Positions 1,090-41,099 of a DNA stretch of 42,473 bases are shown here, in pieces. Position 1 is the stretch's first letter, and each line of letters starts with the position of its first letter. This stretch comes from a virus. Lineage: Duplodnaviria > Caudoviricetes. The DNA is taken from positions 1 through 42,473 of the IMG/VR virus record IMGVR_UViG_3300038492_000068; one strand, given 5' to 3'. The notes under the pieces are model-generated. The model did not search any database. It saw nothing but the letters and a program-made list of their open reading frames with translations, and was not told where the DNA came from. The translations under genes were made by a program, and so were the position numbers.

Positions 1090-1109
1090 CAGCTAGATAT
1101 CGCCTTTAA

Positions 1110-1141
1110 GCCCGGTATGGTTCGCCCTGCCGGGTTTTTTT
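1110..1141 (+). terminator. Rho-independent terminator
   Basis: GCCCGGTATGG-TTCG-CCCTGCCGGGT hairpin followed by a T run. Confidence 0.8.
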
Positions 1142-1243
1142 GTGCCCGTCGATAAATCCCCTGCCTTTTTCAATCGTCGCTTACAGCGCATTCTACGCGG
1201 TCTCAGCGGCAGAGAACAAAACGAGAACATTCCCGGTCAGAGT

Positions 1244-1259
1244 TGGCACGATTCTTGCT
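1244..1259 (+). promoter_or_regulatory. Sigma-54 (RpoN) -24/-12 motif
   Basis: TGGCACGATTCTTGCT matches the consensus TGGCACG-N4-TTGCW exactly. Confidence 0.65.
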
Positions 1260-1308: not shown

Positions 1309-1328
1309 TGTGGATAAGCTGTGGATAA
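1309..1328. promoter_or_regulatory. Two tandem DnaA boxes
   Basis: TGTGGATAA at 1309-1317 and 1320-1328 (reverse complement of TTATCCACA). Confidence 0.7.
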
Positions 1329-1347
1329 AATCTGAATTTCCCTTTAA

Positions 1348-1360
1348 AATCAATAACTTA
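1348..1360. promoter_or_regulatory. IHF binding site
   Basis: AATCAATAACTTA matches WATCAANNNNTTR, with an A/T-rich flank. Confidence 0.6.
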
Positions 1361-1859
1361 GACCGATTACGGCTAAGGGGCAAAGGCTCGAAGCTGAGCC
1401 TTACAGACGCAAGCTGGCCCAGCGGAAACGCTGCAACCCAGCGGCGCAGGTTTGATCACGGCCGTTAAGAGTGGTCTAGGTATAGCGCATATCTATACCG
1501 AACGCGTAGCGGGTACACCATCGCAACGCGCCCTAGTGCCAGAGTCACAGAGTAGATCGGATGCTACTGTATTCGGATGACGTGCTTAAATATGGGGTTA
1601 GTCTTGGCCTGATAGAACAGGTCTCGATGATGCGCAGAGTAATGGTAAGAATGTACGTTCTTCACTGGAGATCAAGTGGAACGATCACGGGTTCAAAAGA
1701 TATACGGTAATTGAGTTTACCCGCACCTTCTAGGTGCCATCCTTCTATCCGGTACGGTCAAGTACACGGAAGCATTCTGTATGTGAGCGAGCTATAAGCA
1801 TGGTAACAGTGCTTATGGCTAAAGTACGTTCAGTCCGAGCGTGCTTTAGGTTTGGCATT
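1359..1859 (+). ncRNA. Candidate large structured non-coding RNA or structured leader
   Basis: No ORF of 60 aa or more; at least 10 hairpins plus long-range helices; G-U wobbles and GNRA loops on the + strand. Confidence 0.6.
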
Positions 1860-1908
1860 CGTCAAGAGTGTCATTCGCCCGCAACCCCAACTATATGAGG
1901 TAATCATC

Positions 1909-2427
1909 ATGAGCAAGAAAGTCGAAGTTACTGCCAAGAACTTCAATACCATTCTGACCTCTCAGGTCAACGCGTTTTCGAGGTTCCGTGACCGGCTGCA
2001 AGACCTTCTCGATTTTGCTCTGGTACAGGCCAGCAATGGCAACTACACGTACATCAATTCCATCGTCAACGCGAAGTTGACGGGCGTTGATCGCCGTGCT
2101 GTCCAGATCGCCATCGAGGACCACGCTGATGTTCAACTGATCCGTGAGGACGGTAATTTTCGGTTCAAGTCGAAAAAGACCAAAGGCTTCCAGTTCAAGC
2201 CGATGGCCGTGGCATGGTACAAGTATGCCCCGACTGCCGAGCCGGTTCCGGTCCATGCCGATCAAGGCGTAATCTCTCAGATTCGCCGTCTGTCGAAAGC
2301 CCTGAAGGGTGACGGCAAGGCGTACATCGAGAAAGGCGAGGTCAACAAGACCAAGTCGATCATCGCGCATCTGGCGAAAACTCCGGGTCTCGACGCCGAG
2401 AAAGTCAAGGCAGCAATGGCAGCATAG
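1909..2427 (+). CDS. Hypothetical early protein
   Basis: Track 1852..2427; GAGG RBS before ATG 1909; strongly biased codon usage. Confidence 0.8.
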   Translation: MSKKVEVTAKNFNTILTSQVNAFSRFRDRLQDLLDFALVQASNGNYTYINSIVNAKLTGVDRRAVQIAIEDHADVQLIREDGNFRFKSKKTKGFQFKPMAVAWYKYAPTAEPVPVHADQGVISQIRRLSKALKGDGKAYIEKGEVNKTKSIIAHLAKTPGLDAEKVKAAMAA

Positions 2428-2444: not shown

Positions 2445-2489
2445 TGTACAGCAGGTTGGGGGTCATTCTGGCCCCCTTCCTAGTGTGCA
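2445..2489 (+). other. Long intergenic hairpin, possible RNase III-type processing site
   Basis: TGTACA..AGG..GGGGGTCA-TTC-TGGCCCCC..CCT..TGTGCA interrupted stem with no U tail. Confidence 0.4.
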
Positions 2490-2517
2490 TTCCGCACCGC
2501 AAACTGGAGGTATAGCC

Positions 2518-2712
2518 ATGACAGCAAAATGCGAAGCTATCGAGCGCTATCCTATCGTCCGTGACGGTCAGGTAGTGATGGTGACTCGTTACGAGCCGAC
2601 TAAGGCCGATGCTGTAGAAGGTGACACAAGTCGCCTGTCGTTCTACTCTCGGCGTCAGCGTCTCAATAGTCAACCAGTACGTGACTATCTGAAAAAGGAG
2701 GGCAAGTTATGA
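2518..2712 (+). CDS. Hypothetical protein
   Basis: GGAGG RBS before ATG 2518 (track 2485..2712). Confidence 0.7.
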   Translation: MTAKCEAIERYPIVRDGQVVMVTRYEPTKADAVEGDTSRLSFYSRRQRLNSQPVRDYLKKEGKL

Positions 2713-2879
2713 GTGTAAGTACCTATATTACACTGTGGCAAGATGAAGTTCAGCCGGATATTCTGTGTTCTGAAACTCTGGAAGCAGAGGATTTTGTCAA
2801 TGACTTCAATGTCGGGGATATTCTGTCTTATGACGTAATACTTACTGATAGCCTAACCGGCAAGGTGGTGGAAAATTAG
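2709..2879 (+). CDS. Small acidic hypothetical protein (56 aa, MSVSTYITLW...)
   Basis: Read by hand; ATGA overlap with the upstream stop; GGAGG upstream. Confidence 0.6.
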   Translation: MSVSTYITLWQDEVQPDILCSETLEAEDFVNDFNVGDILSYDVILTDSLTGKVVEN

Positions 2880-2950
2880 CAATAATAATAATAAAATCAT
2901 CACTCTGGCCGCAATATAATTTCTCTTTACGAGTAATTTTCACCTATTCC

Positions 2951-2975
2951 ACCCCGCTTCGGCGGGGTTTTTTTT
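2951..2975 (+). terminator. Rho-independent terminator
   Basis: ACCCCGC-TTCG-GCGGGGT followed by T7. Confidence 0.85.
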
Positions 2976-2984
2976 GGAGGCGTT

Positions 2985-3362
2985 GTGAAAAACTATTCCT
3001 ATAGTGTCCATAATCAGGGGAAAAATCATCCCTTTCTCTACCTCGGAATTCCCTCCGGCCCCTTGATAAAGGATTACCCAATTTGTAAGGGCCCATTTTA
3101 TCGTATGTTTGGCGAGCCTGTGATGCCGTGGACATGCGGTCTTCTCTCTATTTCCGACCATCGTATTTCCCTCCCCAGACCTCATGAAAAGTATTACAAT
3201 ATCTCCCATGAGGGCAGATATGAAGGTTCTGTCCGTTTCATCGACGAAGGGGAGGTGTTTGGCCTTATGGGGCCTACTTCAGAATTCGTTTACCAGCGTC
3301 ATTCTACTGCTGGTTACGAACAAGGGCAGGCGTGTTGCCTGCAATTTCTTTTAATCTTCTAA
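2985..3362 (+). CDS. Hypothetical protein
   Basis: GTG start with GGAGG upstream; fills the gap between genes; no motif. Confidence 0.4.
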   Translation: MKNYSYSVHNQGKNHPFLYLGIPSGPLIKDYPICKGPFYRMFGEPVMPWTCGLLSISDHRISLPRPHEKYYNISHEGRYEGSVRFIDEGEVFGLMGPTSEFVYQRHSTAGYEQGQACCLQFLLIF

Positions 3363-3381: not shown

Positions 3382-3810
3382 ATGAAAAAATTGCTATCCA
3401 TCGGCGTCCTGTTATGCGCCACATTTCTTCTCGCCGGGTGCCCCGATGACGCCAACGTTGCCAAGAAAAATCTCACCAAAGCAGCGGATAACTTCGAACT
3501 GATGCGTCGAGTCGTGTTTTTGAACACATGGACCGGTGAGAATGTCCTCATCATCGAGGGCAGATGCAATATTGAGTACGGCAATATCCGAACTTCGGTG
3601 ATCTGTAAGGTCGGCCCGAATATGTACAAGCGTAATTTCCTCGGAAACTCCGGGCAAGTTACTGCTTATGTCGAGCAGATGGCAGCTGTGCCGGTGAATG
3701 TCTACCACTATCGCCGCACATTCAAACCTCAGGTAGTTATTCCTGACATCGACTTTCGTGGAAGCGGAAGCGCGATCATCAACGCCGTGACCCCCGACAA
3801 CAACGACTAG
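3382..3810 (+). CDS. Conserved phage lipoprotein
   Basis: Signal peptide with lipobox LLAGC; ADNFE..RRVVF.N, IEGRC and YHYR..FKPQ..IPDID motifs of a widespread phage lipoprotein family. Confidence 0.8.
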   Translation: MKKLLSIGVLLCATFLLAGCPDDANVAKKNLTKAADNFELMRRVVFLNTWTGENVLIIEGRCNIEYGNIRTSVICKVGPNMYKRNFLGNSGQVTAYVEQMAAVPVNVYHYRRTFKPQVVIPDIDFRGSGSAIINAVTPDNND

Positions 3811-18562: not shown

Positions 18563-18616
18563 GGAAACGATGGCCCCGTCGTGATAGGATCGACGGGGTC
18601 TTATATGAGGACTGGT

Positions 18617-19153
18617 ATGAACAGCAAATCAAAGAACTCGAATCCAAAGCAACAGTACGGCGATCTAAAGCTCCCGGTACACCGGGTGCCTCCAATCGCC
18701 CTAGCGTACCTCGCAATGGGGTGCGGAGAGGGAGCCCGTAAGTACGGCCCCTTCAACTGGCGGGAGATCGATATTGAAGCAATGACCTATATCGGGGCTG
18801 CGCTTCGTCACATTATGGCGTGGATCGACGGGGAAGATATAGACCCTGAGTCAGGAAACCCCCATATCGCTCACGCAATGGCGTCTCTGGCGATATTAGC
18901 CGACGCCTATGAACGAGGGAACCTTATAGATGATCGCCCCGCAGAGGGGCCTGTAGGCTCTCTCATCCGCAAGGAAGCAGAAAGGAGAAAAGCAGAAAAT
19001 GAGCAAGCAAAGCAGGCGATGGAGCCGACTGAAGAACGCTCGAACCCGGAGCATAGCTCTGAATGGGAAGTATTTCAAAATGGCCGGACGGTCCGCTGGG
19101 ACGAGGCGAACTTACGCTATGTGCCGGTCATCGGGACAGGTAGTAAGGATTGA
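18617..19153 (+). CDS. dATP/dGTP diphosphohydrolase domain protein (DUF5664-like)
   Basis: GARKYGPFNW, YIGAALRH, DPESGNPHIAHA. Confidence 0.85.
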   Translation: MNSKSKNSNPKQQYGDLKLPVHRVPPIALAYLAMGCGEGARKYGPFNWREIDIEAMTYIGAALRHIMAWIDGEDIDPESGNPHIAHAMASLAILADAYERGNLIDDRPAEGPVGSLIRKEAERRKAENEQAKQAMEPTEERSNPEHSSEWEVFQNGRTVRWDEANLRYVPVIGTGSKD

Positions 19154-38433: not shown

Positions 38434-38510
38434 TGGAGCCCCAGCTCGGAATCGCGCCGAGTTCCCCTGTTTACAAGACAGGGCATCATCTAATAAATGC
38501 TTCGTGAGGC
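38434..38510 (-). tRNA. tRNA-Thr(UGU)
   Basis: Anticodon arm CCUGU-CUUGUAA-ACAGG; encoded CCA; T-loop CGCGAUU; bulged acceptor stem. Confidence 0.8.
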
Positions 38511-38515
38511 ATATT

Positions 38516-38588
38516 TGGCAGAGCGTGAGGGATTCGAACCCCCTCAGTAAGCGTTTGGAGTGCCACCCGGACCGATCCTGTACGCCCT
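38516..38588 (-). tRNA. tRNA-Trp(CCA)
   Basis: A1-U72, G73, loop CUCCAAA, T-loop UUCGAAU; weak anticodon stem. Confidence 0.7.
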
Positions 38589-38594
38589 ATAATT

Positions 38595-38682
38595 TGGAGG
38601 AAGGCAAGAGAGTCGAACTCTTACAGCCCGTCAGGGCCATCACGGGGTTCAAGCCCGATAAGCACGCCACATGCGGCCTTCC
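38595..38682 (-). tRNA. tRNA-Ser(UGA)
   Basis: GGAAGGC acceptor, long variable arm, loop CUUGAAC, CCA. Confidence 0.85.
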
Positions 38683-38683
38683 T

Positions 38684-38758
38684 TGGTGGAGCCAGATGGT
38701 ATCGCGCCATCCTCTTCAGTGTTTCAAACTGACGCTAATCTATCTCAGCTACAGCTCC
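38684..38758 (-). tRNA. tRNA-Phe(GAA)
   Basis: UCAGU-UUGAAAC-ACUGA; A73; T-loop CGCGAUA. Confidence 0.85.
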
Positions 38759-38759
38759 T

Positions 38760-38832
38760 TGGTACTCCGTCACGGTTACGCTCCGCGCACCCCTTCCTTG
38801 TAAGAGATGGGTCTGGACCTAGCAGTCGGAGT
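38760..38832 (-). tRNA. tRNA-Val(UAC)
   Basis: Loop CUUACAA, A73, T-loop AGCGUAA; irregular D arm. Confidence 0.7.
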
Positions 38833-38836
38833 AAAT

Positions 38837-38911
38837 TGGTTGCCACGGTTGGATTTGCACCAACGTCCGTCGGTTATCAGCCGACTGCTACGCTAACTCA
38901 GCTACGCGGCA
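38837..38911 (-). tRNA. tRNA-Ile(GAU)
   Basis: GUCGG-CUGAUAA-CCGAC; A73; T-loop UGCAAAU. Confidence 0.85.
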
Positions 38912-38912
38912 G

Positions 38913-38984
38913 TGGTAGCGGGTACCGGTAACGCTCCGGTCTATCTGAGGTTATGGGCCTCTGACGGTCTCTTGACCACCCGCA
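38913..38984 (-). tRNA. tRNA-Met(CAU), initiator-like
   Basis: Loop CCCAUAA; U1xU72 mismatch; GCGGG acceptor; A73; T-loop AGCGUUA. Confidence 0.7.
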
Positions 38985-38989
38985 TCAAT

Positions 38990-39073
38990 TGGAACACGAG
39001 ACGGGATTCGAACCCGCGAACCTTTCGGGCTGGGGTGAAGGCCCAGCTTCTTTAGCCACTTGAATACTCGTGT
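38990..39073 (-). tRNA. tRNA-Glu(UUC) with enlarged variable region
   Basis: CUGGG-CCUUCAC-CCCAG; variable region CCGAAAGG hairpin; 84 nt. Confidence 0.7.
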
Positions 39074-39077
39074 ATGT

Positions 39078-39153
39078 TGGAGCGAGCGGAGGGAATCGAA
39101 CCCTGCCCAGCATGGCTTGGAAGGCCAGCGCTACGACCCGCGTAGACGCCCGC
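39078..39153 (-). tRNA. tRNA-Gly(UCC)
   Basis: GCGGGCG acceptor, U73, loop CUUCCAA. Confidence 0.85.
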
Positions 39154-39158
39154 ATGTT

Positions 39159-39235
39159 TGGCAGCTCCGACGGGAATCGAACCCGCCTCCTTCCTCCTAG
39201 ACAGGGAGGTGTACTCGCCAGAATACTACGAAGCT
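39159..39235 (-). tRNA. tRNA-Asp(GUC)
   Basis: CCUCC-CUGUCUA-GGAGG; G73. Confidence 0.85.
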
Positions 39236-39241
39236 ATTGTT

Positions 39242-39317
39242 TGGCGAGAGCGCAGGACTTCCACCTGTCTATGATCCTTGTCGGGTAATAACCCTTACGG
39301 CTTAGCATTGTACTCTC
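39242..39317 (-). ncRNA. Degenerate tRNA-like element, anticodon unclear
   Basis: GAGAGU/GCUCUC acceptor, T-arm CAGG-UGGAAGU-CCUG, CCA end, 76 nt; no clean anticodon stem. Confidence 0.5.
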
Positions 39318-39327
39318 TATTGTTTTT

Positions 39328-39405
39328 TGGCTCCCCGTCGTGGACTCGAACCACGCTCTTTCTTGATTAACAGTCAAGCGCCATCTCCCGGACGACTCAC
39401 GAGGA
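39328..39405 (-). tRNA. tRNA-Asn(GUU)
   Basis: UCCUCGU acceptor, G73, CUUGA-CUGUUAA-UCAAG. Confidence 0.88.
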
Positions 39406-39413
39406 ATAATAAT

Positions 39414-39487
39414 TGGAGGTCTCGGTCGGTGCGAGCCGACATCCTCTCGCTTTGCAGGCGAGCGCATATCCTTTCTGCCACGAGACC
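39414..39487 (-). tRNA. tRNA-Cys(GCA)
   Basis: U73; CUCGC-CUGCAAA-GCGAG; 6-nt T-loop CUCGCA. Confidence 0.85.
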
Positions 39488-39488
39488 T

Positions 39489-39575
39489 TGGAGGAGGGCA
39501 CTGGATTCGAACCAGAAGCGTTGCCGCTCGGTACGCTTAGCAGGCGACCCCCGTCACCATCAGGGGTTACCCTCC
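39489..39575 (-). tRNA. tRNA-Ser(GCU)
   Basis: GGAGGGU acceptor, long variable arm, loop CUGCUAA. Confidence 0.85.
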
Positions 39576-39651
39576 AACTTACCTTTTTATGGATCCAGTC
39601 CACCCGATGATCCTCGGGGCGTCGTTTCAGCAGCCGCGCATTCATGAATTT

Positions 39652-39737
39652 TGGTGTAGAGGGCTGGATTTGAACCAACACGGACTAGCCGACCTGTGGG
39701 TTACAACCACGTACCCTACCGAATGGGTGTCCTCTAC
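39652..39737 (-). tRNA. tRNA-Tyr(GUA)
   Basis: Loop UUGUAAC, long variable arm, A73. Confidence 0.85.
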
Positions 39738-39742
39738 TAATT

Positions 39743-39817
39743 TGGTCAGAACGGTAGGACTCGAACCTACAGTATGTGTGTCCAAGACACATGGTTTACC
39801 TGTTAACCGACGCTCTG
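39743..39817 (-). tRNA. tRNA-Pro(UGG)
   Basis: C1-G72, A73, UGUGU-CUUGGAC-ACACA. Confidence 0.85.
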
Positions 39818-39823
39818 ATTGTT

Positions 39824-39898
39824 TGGAAGTCCCGACTGGATTTGCACCAGTAGCGCATGGGTTCAAAGCCCAGCATGTTGCTGTTACACCACGAGACA
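39824..39898 (-). tRNA. tRNA-Gln(UUG)
   Basis: UGGG-CUUUGAA-CCCA; U1xU72; T-loop UGCAAAU. Confidence 0.8.
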
Positions 39899-39904
39899 AT
39901 TATT

Positions 39905-39974
39905 TGGTACCCTAGGCAGGATTCGAACCTACCACCGTCGGCTTAGAAGACCTTGGCCGTCCATCGGCTAGGGT
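39905..39974 (-). tRNA. tRNA-Arg(UCU), short D arm
   Basis: Perfect 7-bp acceptor ACCCUAG/CUAGGGU; loop CUUCUAA; 70 nt. Confidence 0.75.
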
Positions 39975-39975
39975 A

Positions 39976-40016
39976 TGGCGCACCGGTATTGGGTGACCCC
40001 CGGTACAAGGGGCGCG
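39976..40016 (-). ncRNA. 41-nt CCA-ended mini tRNA-like RNA
   Basis: CGCGCCCCUUGUACCGGGGGUCACCCAAUACCGGUGCGCCA fills the slot between two tRNAs; termini can pair. Confidence 0.45.
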
Positions 40017-40017
40017 T

Positions 40018-40090
40018 TGGTGGAGCTACACGGAATCAAACCGTGCCCTCGATCTTGCAAGGATCATGGTGCTACTCATAGACTAGCCCC
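40018..40090 (-). tRNA. tRNA-Ala(UGC)
   Basis: GGGGCUA acceptor with G3-U70, A73, loop CUUGCAA. Confidence 0.88.
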
Positions 40091-40095
40091 TTGAT

Positions 40096-40171
40096 TGGTT
40101 GGAGTGGAGGGACTCTAACCCCCATCTGTCCGGGTAAGAACCGGAAGTAATAACAGTTATACGACACTCCA
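40096..40171 (-). tRNA. tRNA-Lys(CUU)
   Basis: UCCGG-UUCUUAC-CCGGA; A73; T-loop UUAGAGU. Confidence 0.85.
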
Positions 40172-40172
40172 T

Positions 40173-40249
40173 TGGTCGGCCCCGAGGGATTCGAACCCCC
40201 ATCTGCTCGGGTAAAAGCCGAGGGTAATGCGCAATTATACGAGAGACCG
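40173..40249 (-). tRNA. tRNA-Lys(UUU)
   Basis: CUCGG-CUUUUAC-CCGAG; A73; canonical T-loop. Confidence 0.85.
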
Positions 40250-40255
40250 TTGAAT

Positions 40256-40327
40256 TGGACCCCTAGGTAGGATTCGAACCTACAACCCTCGGATTCGTAG
40301 TCCAAGCTCCGTCCATCCGGCTAGGAG
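40256..40327 (-). tRNA. tRNA-Arg(ACG)
   Basis: Loop CUACGAA; canonical T arm; short D arm. Confidence 0.8.
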
Positions 40328-40335
40328 TTGTGCTA

Positions 40336-40384
40336 GGCGGGGAGAGGCCTTCAGCCTCCCATCCCTCTTGCCAGAGGGCCCGCC
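40336..40384 (-). ncRNA. Three-way-junction structured element without CCA
   Basis: GGCGGG/CCCGCC closes hairpins CCCUCU-GGCA-AGAGGG and GGGAGGC-UGAAG-GCCUCUC. Confidence 0.55.
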
Positions 40385-40390
40385 GCGCTT

Positions 40391-40467
40391 TGGTACCCAG
40401 TGCAGGAGTCGAACCTGCAAAATTCTGTTTCTAAGACAGACACGTATGCCAATTCCGTCAACTGGGC
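40391..40467 (-). tRNA. tRNA-Leu(UAG), short variable loop
   Basis: UCUGU-CUUAGAA-ACAGA; A73; 77 nt. Confidence 0.85.
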
Positions 40468-40472
40468 ATTGT

Positions 40473-40543
40473 TGGGGTGAGGCGGAGATTCGAACTCCTC
40501 AGCGTGGGTCACAACCGCGCTTGCTACCCTGAGCTACCTCAAC
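40473..40543 (-). tRNA. tRNA-His(GUG)
   Basis: G-1:C73; CGCGG-UUGUGAC-CCACG; 5' end overlaps the methyltransferase stop codon. Confidence 0.75.
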
Positions 40544-41099
40544 TCGTTGCCACCTTGAAAGTGGCTACCATACCTTTCTTCTCCCAGTCCTCAATCACGT
40601 AGTGCTTTCTGAGGACAGACAGCCACCATTCGGCAGGCTGCACTGTAAGATGTAAAGGCTCATCGGTAAACTTTCCGTTATCTTTATGAAGGAAGATTCG
40701 GTAGTAAATTTTATCACAGTGATTACGCACTCTGCGGAAGACAGCATTGACCTTATTCTCCGGTATATGCTCCATCACGTCACAGCAGAATCCGTAGTCA
40801 TAATGCTCGGGAAGGTCTAGCTCCCAGAGGCACTGCTGGTAGAACGGGAGCTTGACACTCTCATCCCTGCAATTATATGCGTGGTCAACCATGTGGACGT
40901 GTGCGTGTCCTGCTTCGGAGATGGCTCGGGCTGCCTGCCCTGTGCCACACCCCAAATCCACCACGGAACCTTGTCCTCCAGTCCACTCTAGGAAGTCGGG
41001 GACACTGAGTCTGCCCGGACTGATTCGGCTGTAGTCCGGATTGTCCCACACCTTCTCGTATTTTTCTCGTTCTACTTGTTCAAGTGAGTCTGAGGACAT
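40539..41099 (-). CDS. Class I SAM-dependent methyltransferase
   Basis: Motif I VVDLGCGTG; FCCDVMEHIP; HLTVQPAEWW. Confidence 0.85.
   Translation of the reverse strand: MSSDSLEQVEREKYEKVWDNPDYSRISPGRLSVPDFLEWTGGQGSVVDLGCGTGQAARAISEAGHAHVHMVDHAYNCRDESVKLPFYQQCLWELDLPEHYDYGFCCDVMEHIPENKVNAVFRRVRNHCDKIYYRIFLHKDNGKFTDEPLHLTVQPAEWWLSVLRKHYVIEDWEKKGMVATFKVATS

Follow-up and report, generated by a model that had tools for sequence, protein, structure and literature searches.

A large conserved RNA structure ahead of the first early gene of a Zobellviridae-like podophage, a candidate for a new class of phage RNA

The left end of virus record IMGVR_UViG_3300038492_000068 (Duplodnaviria; Caudoviricetes), from an uncultured aquatic phage and analysed here as one window comprising the whole record of 42,473 bases, holds a long intergenic stretch that leads into what appears to be the first early gene, at 1909-2427 on the + strand. 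The + strand also encodes a COOH.NH2 ligase, an amidoligase, a glutamine amidotransferase, an ATP-grasp protein, a primase-helicase, a split DNA polymerase and a sigma-like protein, and the - strand the terminase, portal and capsid; from the 39 proteins scanned, this layout appears to be that of a Zobellviridae/LUZ24-like podophage without an RNA polymerase of its own. An initial annotation, made from the letters alone, had marked 1359-1859 as a densely paired, open reading frame (ORF)-free element of some 500 nucleotides (nt) and proposed that it is a multi-domain non-coding RNA. The dense pairing stands, while the 3' end was drawn too short, as the element continues to about 1889. It is non-coding, is conserved above neutral sites, keeps a + strand pairing pattern and forms the leader of a first-gene family, and the sequence evidence indicates that it is a real, conserved and uncatalogued large RNA structure. 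Infection probably yields it as one of the earliest transcripts, and it likely acts as a stand-alone non-coding RNA.

Of central importance is a single homologue. With the downstream gene as bait, a metagenome scan gave one confirmed locus among 375 pattern matches, a 1,336-nt contig (L005) whose first-gene protein is 51% identical to that of the window. Window positions 1357-1889 align along their full length with L005 157-663, and 332 of 528 columns are identical (63%), as against 42% for third codon positions of the next gene and 45% for the upstream flank, and eight blocks of 10-21 nt inside the RNA are invariant, several of them predicted to be unpaired. The earlier description of the element as ORF-free is essentially right, with 7-12 stops in each of the six frames; two short GTG frames, of 52 and 54 amino acids, overlap the leader, and the indels between the two leaders (1, 4, 1, 1 and 1, 5, 17, 1, 1, 2, 8, 3 nt) are frame-breaking.

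The fold is conserved in L005 by four tests, with a fifth neutral. When the two sequences are folded independently, 14 of the 22 helices of the window reappear in L005 at corresponding positions, compared with a mean of 3.3 and a maximum of 9 among 117 decoys in which the identical letters were kept and the other 203 permuted. The stems 1790/1820 and 1819/1849, which the initial annotation had named before L005 was found, keep 24 of their 25 pairs although 15 of 48 columns have changed, a retention reached in none of 100,000 trials of a uniform null; when 70% of changes are transitions, P is 4e-4. Trained on the window only, a covariance model scores L005, a held-out homologue, at 79.5 bits with structure and 52.5 without (+27 bits), its score for the window itself rising only from 128.5 to 139.2 bits when structure is added. 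Lastly, the plain alignment contains five all-Watson-Crick stretches of 5 base pairs (bp) with at least three compensated pairs, where 60 nulls gave a mean of 0.33 and a maximum of 2. A multi-domain, non-coding + strand RNA structure under selection, as first proposed, is thus supported by the fold kept in L005.

The + strand assignment also agrees with fold stability. The stretch 1350-1870 reaches -185.6 kcal/mol on the + strand (z -3.70, none of 100 shuffles as stable), as against z -0.91 with 22 of 100 shuffles as stable on the - strand; in sliding 120-nt windows, 1720-1920 holds most of the stability signal. Exchanges to and from G-U pairs between the window and L005 likewise argue for a + strand RNA rather than DNA cruciforms.

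No catalogued family matches the element. Rfam 15 gives no match to the leader at gathering thresholds, a search of 1100-2000 at E up to 10 gives four chance-level matches only (E 1.1-9.1), L005 has no match at E up to 0.5, and ARAGORN finds no transfer-messenger RNA (tmRNA) in the window, in keeping with the initial annotation, which recognised no group I/II intron, tmRNA or RNase P in it. Short segments with some resemblance to loops of RNase P and T-box RNAs were discounted, as the order differs and Rfam gives no match. Our literature search found no paper linking Zobellviridae with non-coding RNA or describing the leader element. In the largest viral RNA screen the candidates are at most 151 nt long (PMC10690425); three invariant leader 12-mers are absent from the six of its supplement files that were searched, and a fragment could still be listed in three others.

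Searches for further homologues added little. The window leader has no blastn homologue among 50,697 phage records, and that of L005 retrieves only a motif upstream of the leader, resembling a binding site for IHF, plus two 25-nt chance matches. Five protein scans of viral contigs with the first gene or the COOH.NH2 ligase as queries gave no confirmed relative, two DNA-pattern scans of viral contigs gave 0 matches and 4 matches, all by chance, and a 15-mer scan of genome contigs gave 83 matches from which extension with nhmmer recovered nothing beyond the seed. Neither the first gene nor the leader was found at 80 terminase-anchored loci (5 of 64 parts scanned), nor in 16 and 14 further whole records, the latter a weak negative for want of a positive control.

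Features at the left end of the window (L005 is the homologue described above; L006 is one of ten related loci discussed below)
Feature	Position	Strand	Remarks
Intrinsic-terminator-like hairpin with U-tract	1108..1143	+	-16.3 kcal/mol, T-run at 1135; ends ORF 295-1089
Sigma-54-type promoter-like motif	1244..1259	+	1 match in the window, 0.03 expected
Two tandem DnaA-box-like 9-mers	1309..1328		Absent from L005 and the other 10 loci
Weak sigma-70-like promoter	1322..1350	+	Predicted start near 1357; 9 of 12 consensus matches
IHF-consensus-like site	1348..1360	+	Overlaps the sigma-70-like promoter; kept in L005 and L006
Entire structured RNA	1357..1889	+	About 530 nt; ends inferred from the L005 alignment
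Variable 5' domain	1357..1447	+	Hairpins 1383/1402 and 1413/1442, the latter with GAAA-capped 1420/1433; predicted in the window only
Conserved hairpins 1454/1476, 1479/1499, 1503/1530, 1547/1570	1454..1574	+	Predicted independently in both sequences
Likely pseudoknot, loop 1517-1521 with 1642-1646	1517..1646	+	5 Watson-Crick pairs in both sequences
Closing helix 1593-1599/1883-1889	1593..1889	+	Ends 8 nt before the ribosome-binding site
3' domain	1782..1883	+	Helix 1782-1790/1875-1883 closes hairpins 1790/1820, 1819/1849, 1853/1873
Ribosome-binding site (1897-1901) and first early gene (ATG 1909)	1897..2427	+	172 amino acids, isoelectric point (pI) 9.8, PHROG 1448/14737
GC hairpin with weak U-tail	2458..2476	+	Directly 3' of the first gene
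Strong terminator	2951..2975	+	Downstream of the first gene

The two-sequence model has over 15 helices in all, three junctions and one supported pseudoknot. L005 folds differently in the part corresponding to the 5' domain. Within 1454-1574, where hairpin 1503/1530 contains an inner helix 1509/1524 with an 8-nt loop, 4 of 6, 6 of 7 and 4 of 4 pairs are compensated when registers are set by hand, and the adjoining block 1531-1545 is invariant. The likely pseudoknot has 3 of its 5 pairs compensated on the unfitted alignment, with a plausible partner position in L006 too; a second candidate, 1357/1469, overlaps the IHF-like site. The closing helix (p 0.55-0.8 in the window) encloses hairpin 1601/1628, the 3' domain and helix 1648/1778, which in turn holds hairpins 1706/1721, 1723/1737 and 1748/1770, and hairpins inside it have compensated pairs relative to L005. 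Hairpin 1790/1820 is capped by a GUAA tetraloop that is invariant between the two.

All twelve helices that the initial annotation spelled out by their letters lie where it placed them and pair over at least the length it gave, and seven of its hairpins recur in L005 (1479/1499, 1503/1530, 1606/1623, 1723/1737, 1748/1770, 1790/1820 and 1819/1849). Of the two long 3' stems, the one it called 11 bp (1790/1820) is actually 12 bp with G-U pairs, while the other (1819/1849) does have the 13 bp ascribed to it, again with G-U pairs; the GNRA-type tetraloops it mentioned number two, at 1425 and 1803. Some of its helices are mutually exclusive with better-supported ones. Helix 1359/1478 is lost in L005 and competes with 1454/1476, where 4 of 6 pairs are compensated; 1634/1780 meets an A-C mismatch in L005, and 1648/1778 fits both sequences; hairpins 1656/1683 and 1688/1723 are broken in L005. 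Helix 1535/1859 can pair in both the window and L005 but is displaced by hairpin 1853/1873, its probability falling from 0.98 to 0.00 once the window RNA extends to 1874 and standing at 0 in L005.

This last exchange bears on the idea that the leader acts in cis on the first gene, by stabilising its message or by switching its translation, its fold shielding the 5' end and setting access to the ribosome-binding site, possibly through the alternative between 1535/1859 and 1853/1873 or through autoregulation. The closing helix does end beside the ribosome-binding site, some long-range helix near the start codon is predicted in 7 of the 12 loci compared, and window pairing 1538-1856 gives way to a local hairpin as the 3' end grows. 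The alternative pairing is nevertheless not predicted in L005, the pairings that cover the ribosome-binding site differ between the two sequences, and 530 nt with a far-upstream pseudoknot would exceed the needs of such a task, so that we regard this role as unlikely. A string of unrelated local signals, such as nuclease sites and pause hairpins, without a joint tertiary fold, seems less probable still. It would fit the concentration of covariation in local hairpins, the long-range helices being invariant or ambiguous, as well as the failure of other genera's leaders to align and the presence of another genome region that matches the leader's minimum free energy z; it would not account for the order and spacing of 14 helices and eight invariant blocks kept over 500 nt, nor for compensated long-range pairs in 1517/1646 and 1648/1778.

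Of the signals upstream of the leader, those called sigma-54-type, DnaA-box-like and IHF-like are named for their likeness to consensus sequences. The terminator at 1108-1143 probably isolates the leader from upstream transcription; the ORF before it encodes an orphan protein of 264 amino acids at the left end and has its own promoter-like site. Sigma-54-type motifs stand ahead of the early region in 6 of the 12 loci (the window; L001 at 34, L002 at 2492, L003 at 834, L004 at 545 and L006 at 1443), and could be real promoters or polymerase decoys near the genome end. Sigma-70-like sites of the strength of that at 1322-1350 number 13 in the window where 7.6 are expected, and L005 has no scored promoter at this position. 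The region of the IHF-like motif has weak blastn matches in phiEco32-like phages. L005 lacks this DnaA-box-like pair and has in its place, ahead of the IHF-like site, an operator-like inverted repeat (85-118).

The IHF-like and DnaA-box-like sites directly upstream could also suggest a replication-primer precursor or origin element, particularly as the ColE1 primer RNA is of similar size and the phage encodes its own primase-helicase and polymerase. We consider this most improbable: the DnaA-box-like sites are absent from the other 11 loci, the RNA ends at a ribosome-binding site, and the phage primase would remove the need for a primer RNA.

The first early gene belongs to a family with 149 representatives at E up to 0.001, among them gene 1 of Pseudoalteromonas phage RIO-1, which lies just inside the left terminal repeat region, and p27 of ICP2; uncharacterised podophage proteins, including some from ICP2, TL, tf and phiNV3, resemble its product. 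The protein is basic in all 12 loci (pI 8.4-9.8) and its model is confident (predicted local distance difference test, pLDDT, 91). Pfam gives 0 matches for the query and four stray single-member matches among 32, Foldseek finds no match in the PDB, and the best VIA-align Z is 6.3, on the last 58 residues; a winged-helix guess from secondary structure was not confirmed. Between the structured RNA and this gene there is no terminator. Downstream, L005 has a full terminator directly after the gene (1223-1244), terminator-like hairpins follow it in 8 of the 12 loci by loose criteria, and in the window promoter-like sites lie beyond the 2951-2975 terminator at 2985, 4328 and 4582.

Through the first gene we found ten Zobellviridae records: four Vibrio phages, RIO-1, HP1, two oyster-metagenome phages and two of ICP2. 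Between their promoter-like sites and the first gene they carry leaders of 460-760 nt without annotated genes, except that in ICP2 one small gene stands before the first-gene homologue. These leaders have + strand z values of -0.8 to -3.8 (8 shuffles each), and pairs are compensated in 19 of 100 cases across the four Vibrio phages and in 29 of 119 across three Melvirus records. Profile hidden Markov models of five leader groups gave no cross-group match above 600 decoys, and a covariance model of the 3' domain gave no significant match in the ten loci, the best in a leader being L006 at 7.1 bits (E 9.7). As no profile or covariance model match ties them to the window RNA, we call the ten positional analogues.

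Only L006 among them has short motifs in common with the window leader. When a hairpin descriptor is composed from L006, L005 and the window, it occurs in those three leaders alone among 1.74 Mb, with a shared 9-mer about 250 nt further on, and the changed loop in L006 has a complementary strand just before the matching helix. Kinship may exist but is a lead only, since the descriptor was drawn after L006 had been examined; aligning the three with MAFFT gave a misaligned result, which was set aside. L006 also has two tRNAs in its early operon (3588-3737), about 1.1 kb downstream of its 760-nt leader and on the same strand.

The Vibrio leaders (L001 255-800, L002 2718-3180, L003 1080-1813, L004 740-1470) have a conserved 3' 450 nt with compensated pairs, and two of them are extended on the 5' side by about 200-270 nt, as a large RNA of modular build would be. 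Those of RIO-1, HP1 and KZY1 (L174 645-1158, L175 1540-2000, L176 1481-1997) form another covarying family and end in an interrupted stem before gene 1, visible in the Vibrio leaders as well, which we take to be like a T7-type RNase III site. In two Vibrio phages the early operon encodes a ProQ/FinO-domain protein (L001 2033-2431, L002 4194-4592), a candidate binder of the structured leader.

Another explanation is a cis-acting antiterminator. The nascent leader would bind the host RNA polymerase in the manner of put, or load the basic first-gene protein in the manner of nut and N, and so carry early transcription past the terminators after gene 1 and at 2951-2975, perhaps helping to pull the genome in. 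Its position directly after a likely early promoter, albeit a weak consensus match, and before the first gene is as expected, as are the terminators after that gene and the basic character of its product. Perfect copies of boxA (consensus GYTCTTTAANA, PMC5725501) stand in the leaders of Vibrio phages 172P1 and 1.208.B and both ICP2 records (L003 1160; L004 816; L177 887 and 1142; L178 905 and 1138), shortly after early promoter-like sites, which suggests rrn-type Nus loading on the early leader. The window has no perfect boxA and three one-mismatch matches, none in the leader, and L005 has none, so the Nus-type version is weakened; in any case boxA is also a mark of non-coding transcripts that are stable, those of rRNA and CRISPR operons among them (PMC13753749), and thus does not separate this explanation from that of a free RNA. 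Moreover, known RNA antiterminators are far smaller, HK022 put being about 65 nt with two hairpins, and lambda N is described as elongated, while the first-gene protein is predicted to be well folded (PMC8632103, for put and N). The promoter-like sites past the terminator also count against it, and on balance we find an antiterminator, the leading alternative to a free RNA, somewhat unlikely.

As to the rest of the genome, the initial annotation's suggestion of co-occurrence with tRNAs fares poorly: the window has 17 tRNAs, unusually many for a 42-kb podophage, but they lie on the - strand at 38434-40542 (38.4-40.5 kb), whereas the element is the leader of the first early gene. The tRNA block adjoins a methyltransferase gene at 40539-41099, and 18581-19153 encodes a protein with a dATP/dGTP diphosphohydrolase domain. 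In our database comparison the capsid and terminase have no close cultured relative, the best identities being about 33% and 46% over partial protein coverage only. A single study supplied four sequencing runs, and contigs of three cover the leader stretch without differences, although two of these runs may come from the source sample itself; in one run (X1), a lower-depth contig diverges from the window sequence at 980. Among the sequencing runs listed as containing the stretch, none is of RNA.

Our tentative preference is to see the element as a large phage RNA of a new class, which is probably cleaved out of the first early message and then works on its own. Its size, pseudoknot, invariant loops and self-closing outline exceed those of known cis-acting elements and match the scale of the ROOL and GOLLD RNAs. 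Host RNA polymerase would start near 1357 soon after DNA entry, producing the RNA and the first gene in one message, and the transcript would fold with a variable region at its 5' end, a core containing the pseudoknot and a junction of three hairpins towards its 3' end, with the closing helix just before the ribosome-binding site. A host RNase could then free the RNA, either RNase III at the abutting 12-13 bp stems or RNase E just past the closing helix. More speculatively, a stable RNA present before any phage protein might sequester a host RNA-binding or defence protein, and it might work as a multimer or together with the basic first-gene protein, as proposed for GOLLD and ROOL.

Several points weigh against a free RNA. 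Expression, promoter, RNA ends and cleavage are all deduced from sequence, and conservation from the window and one true homologue. The RNA lacks a terminator of its own and so, in the manner of cis elements, is bound to a gene; ten related records have long leaders in this position, four with perfect boxA, which points to a role in transcription, and the full terminator right after the first gene of L005 resembles a lambdoid antitermination layout. We found no partner or target, the longest match to the leader elsewhere in the genome being 12 nt. Nor is its stability unique, for among sixteen 540-nt windows of the genome (15 shuffles each) the leader has z -4.1 and 2501-3040 has z -4.3. The closing helix is invariant, leaving no covariation to confirm it, and is not predicted in L005.

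The comparative search suggested at the outset thus gave one true homologue with the fold kept, but a whole-structure test on the plain alignment that is not significant. On a sequence-only MAFFT alignment, the 144 confident window pairs divide into 53 unchanged, 25 kept after change, 48 broken and 18 gapped, which is no better than chance (15 compensated against 12.1 expected, P 0.19; also P 0.54). Two-sided changes do cluster there (28 against 20.1, P 0.002), and we attribute the neutral result to short stems that changed in every letter and were aligned out of register. When flanking anchors are used to set the registers by hand, 19 helices of 101 pairs have 55 unchanged, 36 compensated and 10 to or from G-U, helices having been trimmed to fit so that zero are broken by construction.

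A bolder proposal, which we hold to be doubtful, is that the element is the founding member of a class of ornate, pseudoknotted RNAs of more than 500 nt that are the very first product of T7-supergroup podophages. Freed from the first early message, they would act in trans before phage proteins appear, either as particles made of RNA only or jointly with the first early protein, which is conserved and of no known fold, disarming a host defence or RNA-binding factor, and the leaders of RIO-1, HP1, ICP2 and the Vibrio Zobellviridae would be far-diverged versions. If this is true, these phages are cultured systems that already carry such versions, and the long folded leaders in the same slot of cultured RIO-1, HP1 and Vibrio 172P1 make the function experimentally approachable.

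It is instructive to compare the element with known systems. Like put and lambda nut, it lies between an early promoter (here a weak consensus match) and the first early gene, with terminators downstream, but it is about eight times longer than put, with over 15 helices rather than two hairpins, and differs from the N/nut system in having no boxA in the window and a first-gene protein unrelated by family or fold searches. The T7 early leader begins at promoters A1-A3 and reaches to the RNase III site that precedes gene 0.3. There too, host polymerase opens the first early message of a T7-supergroup podophage with a long untranslated stretch; we know of no ornate conserved fold in it, and the window leader ends in a three-hairpin junction rather than a T7-type interrupted stem before the gene. 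GOLLD and ROOL form RNA-only cages. Both are in Rfam, and GOLLD has a variable 5' and a conserved 3' part (bioRxiv 10.1101/2024.12.08.627333), as does our phage-borne RNA; GOLLD is, however, often longer than 800 nt and near tRNAs, and the element, at about 530 nt, has no Rfam match. ROOL has a mean length of 581 nt, and bacterial or phage RNAs of more than 500 nt with multistem, pseudoknotted folds are described as rare and enriched for unusual biochemistry (PMC5737381). The element resembles ROOL in size, in being phage-borne, and in its predicted multistem junctions, likely pseudoknot and few invariant stretches; it differs in matching no Rfam covariance model, in one supported pseudoknot where three are described for ROOL, and in lying away from the tRNA island, joined to the first early gene without its own terminator. 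It is a candidate class in a setting new with respect to GOLLD and ROOL: it would be the first RNA that a lytic podophage makes, and it is paired with a conserved protein of no known fold.
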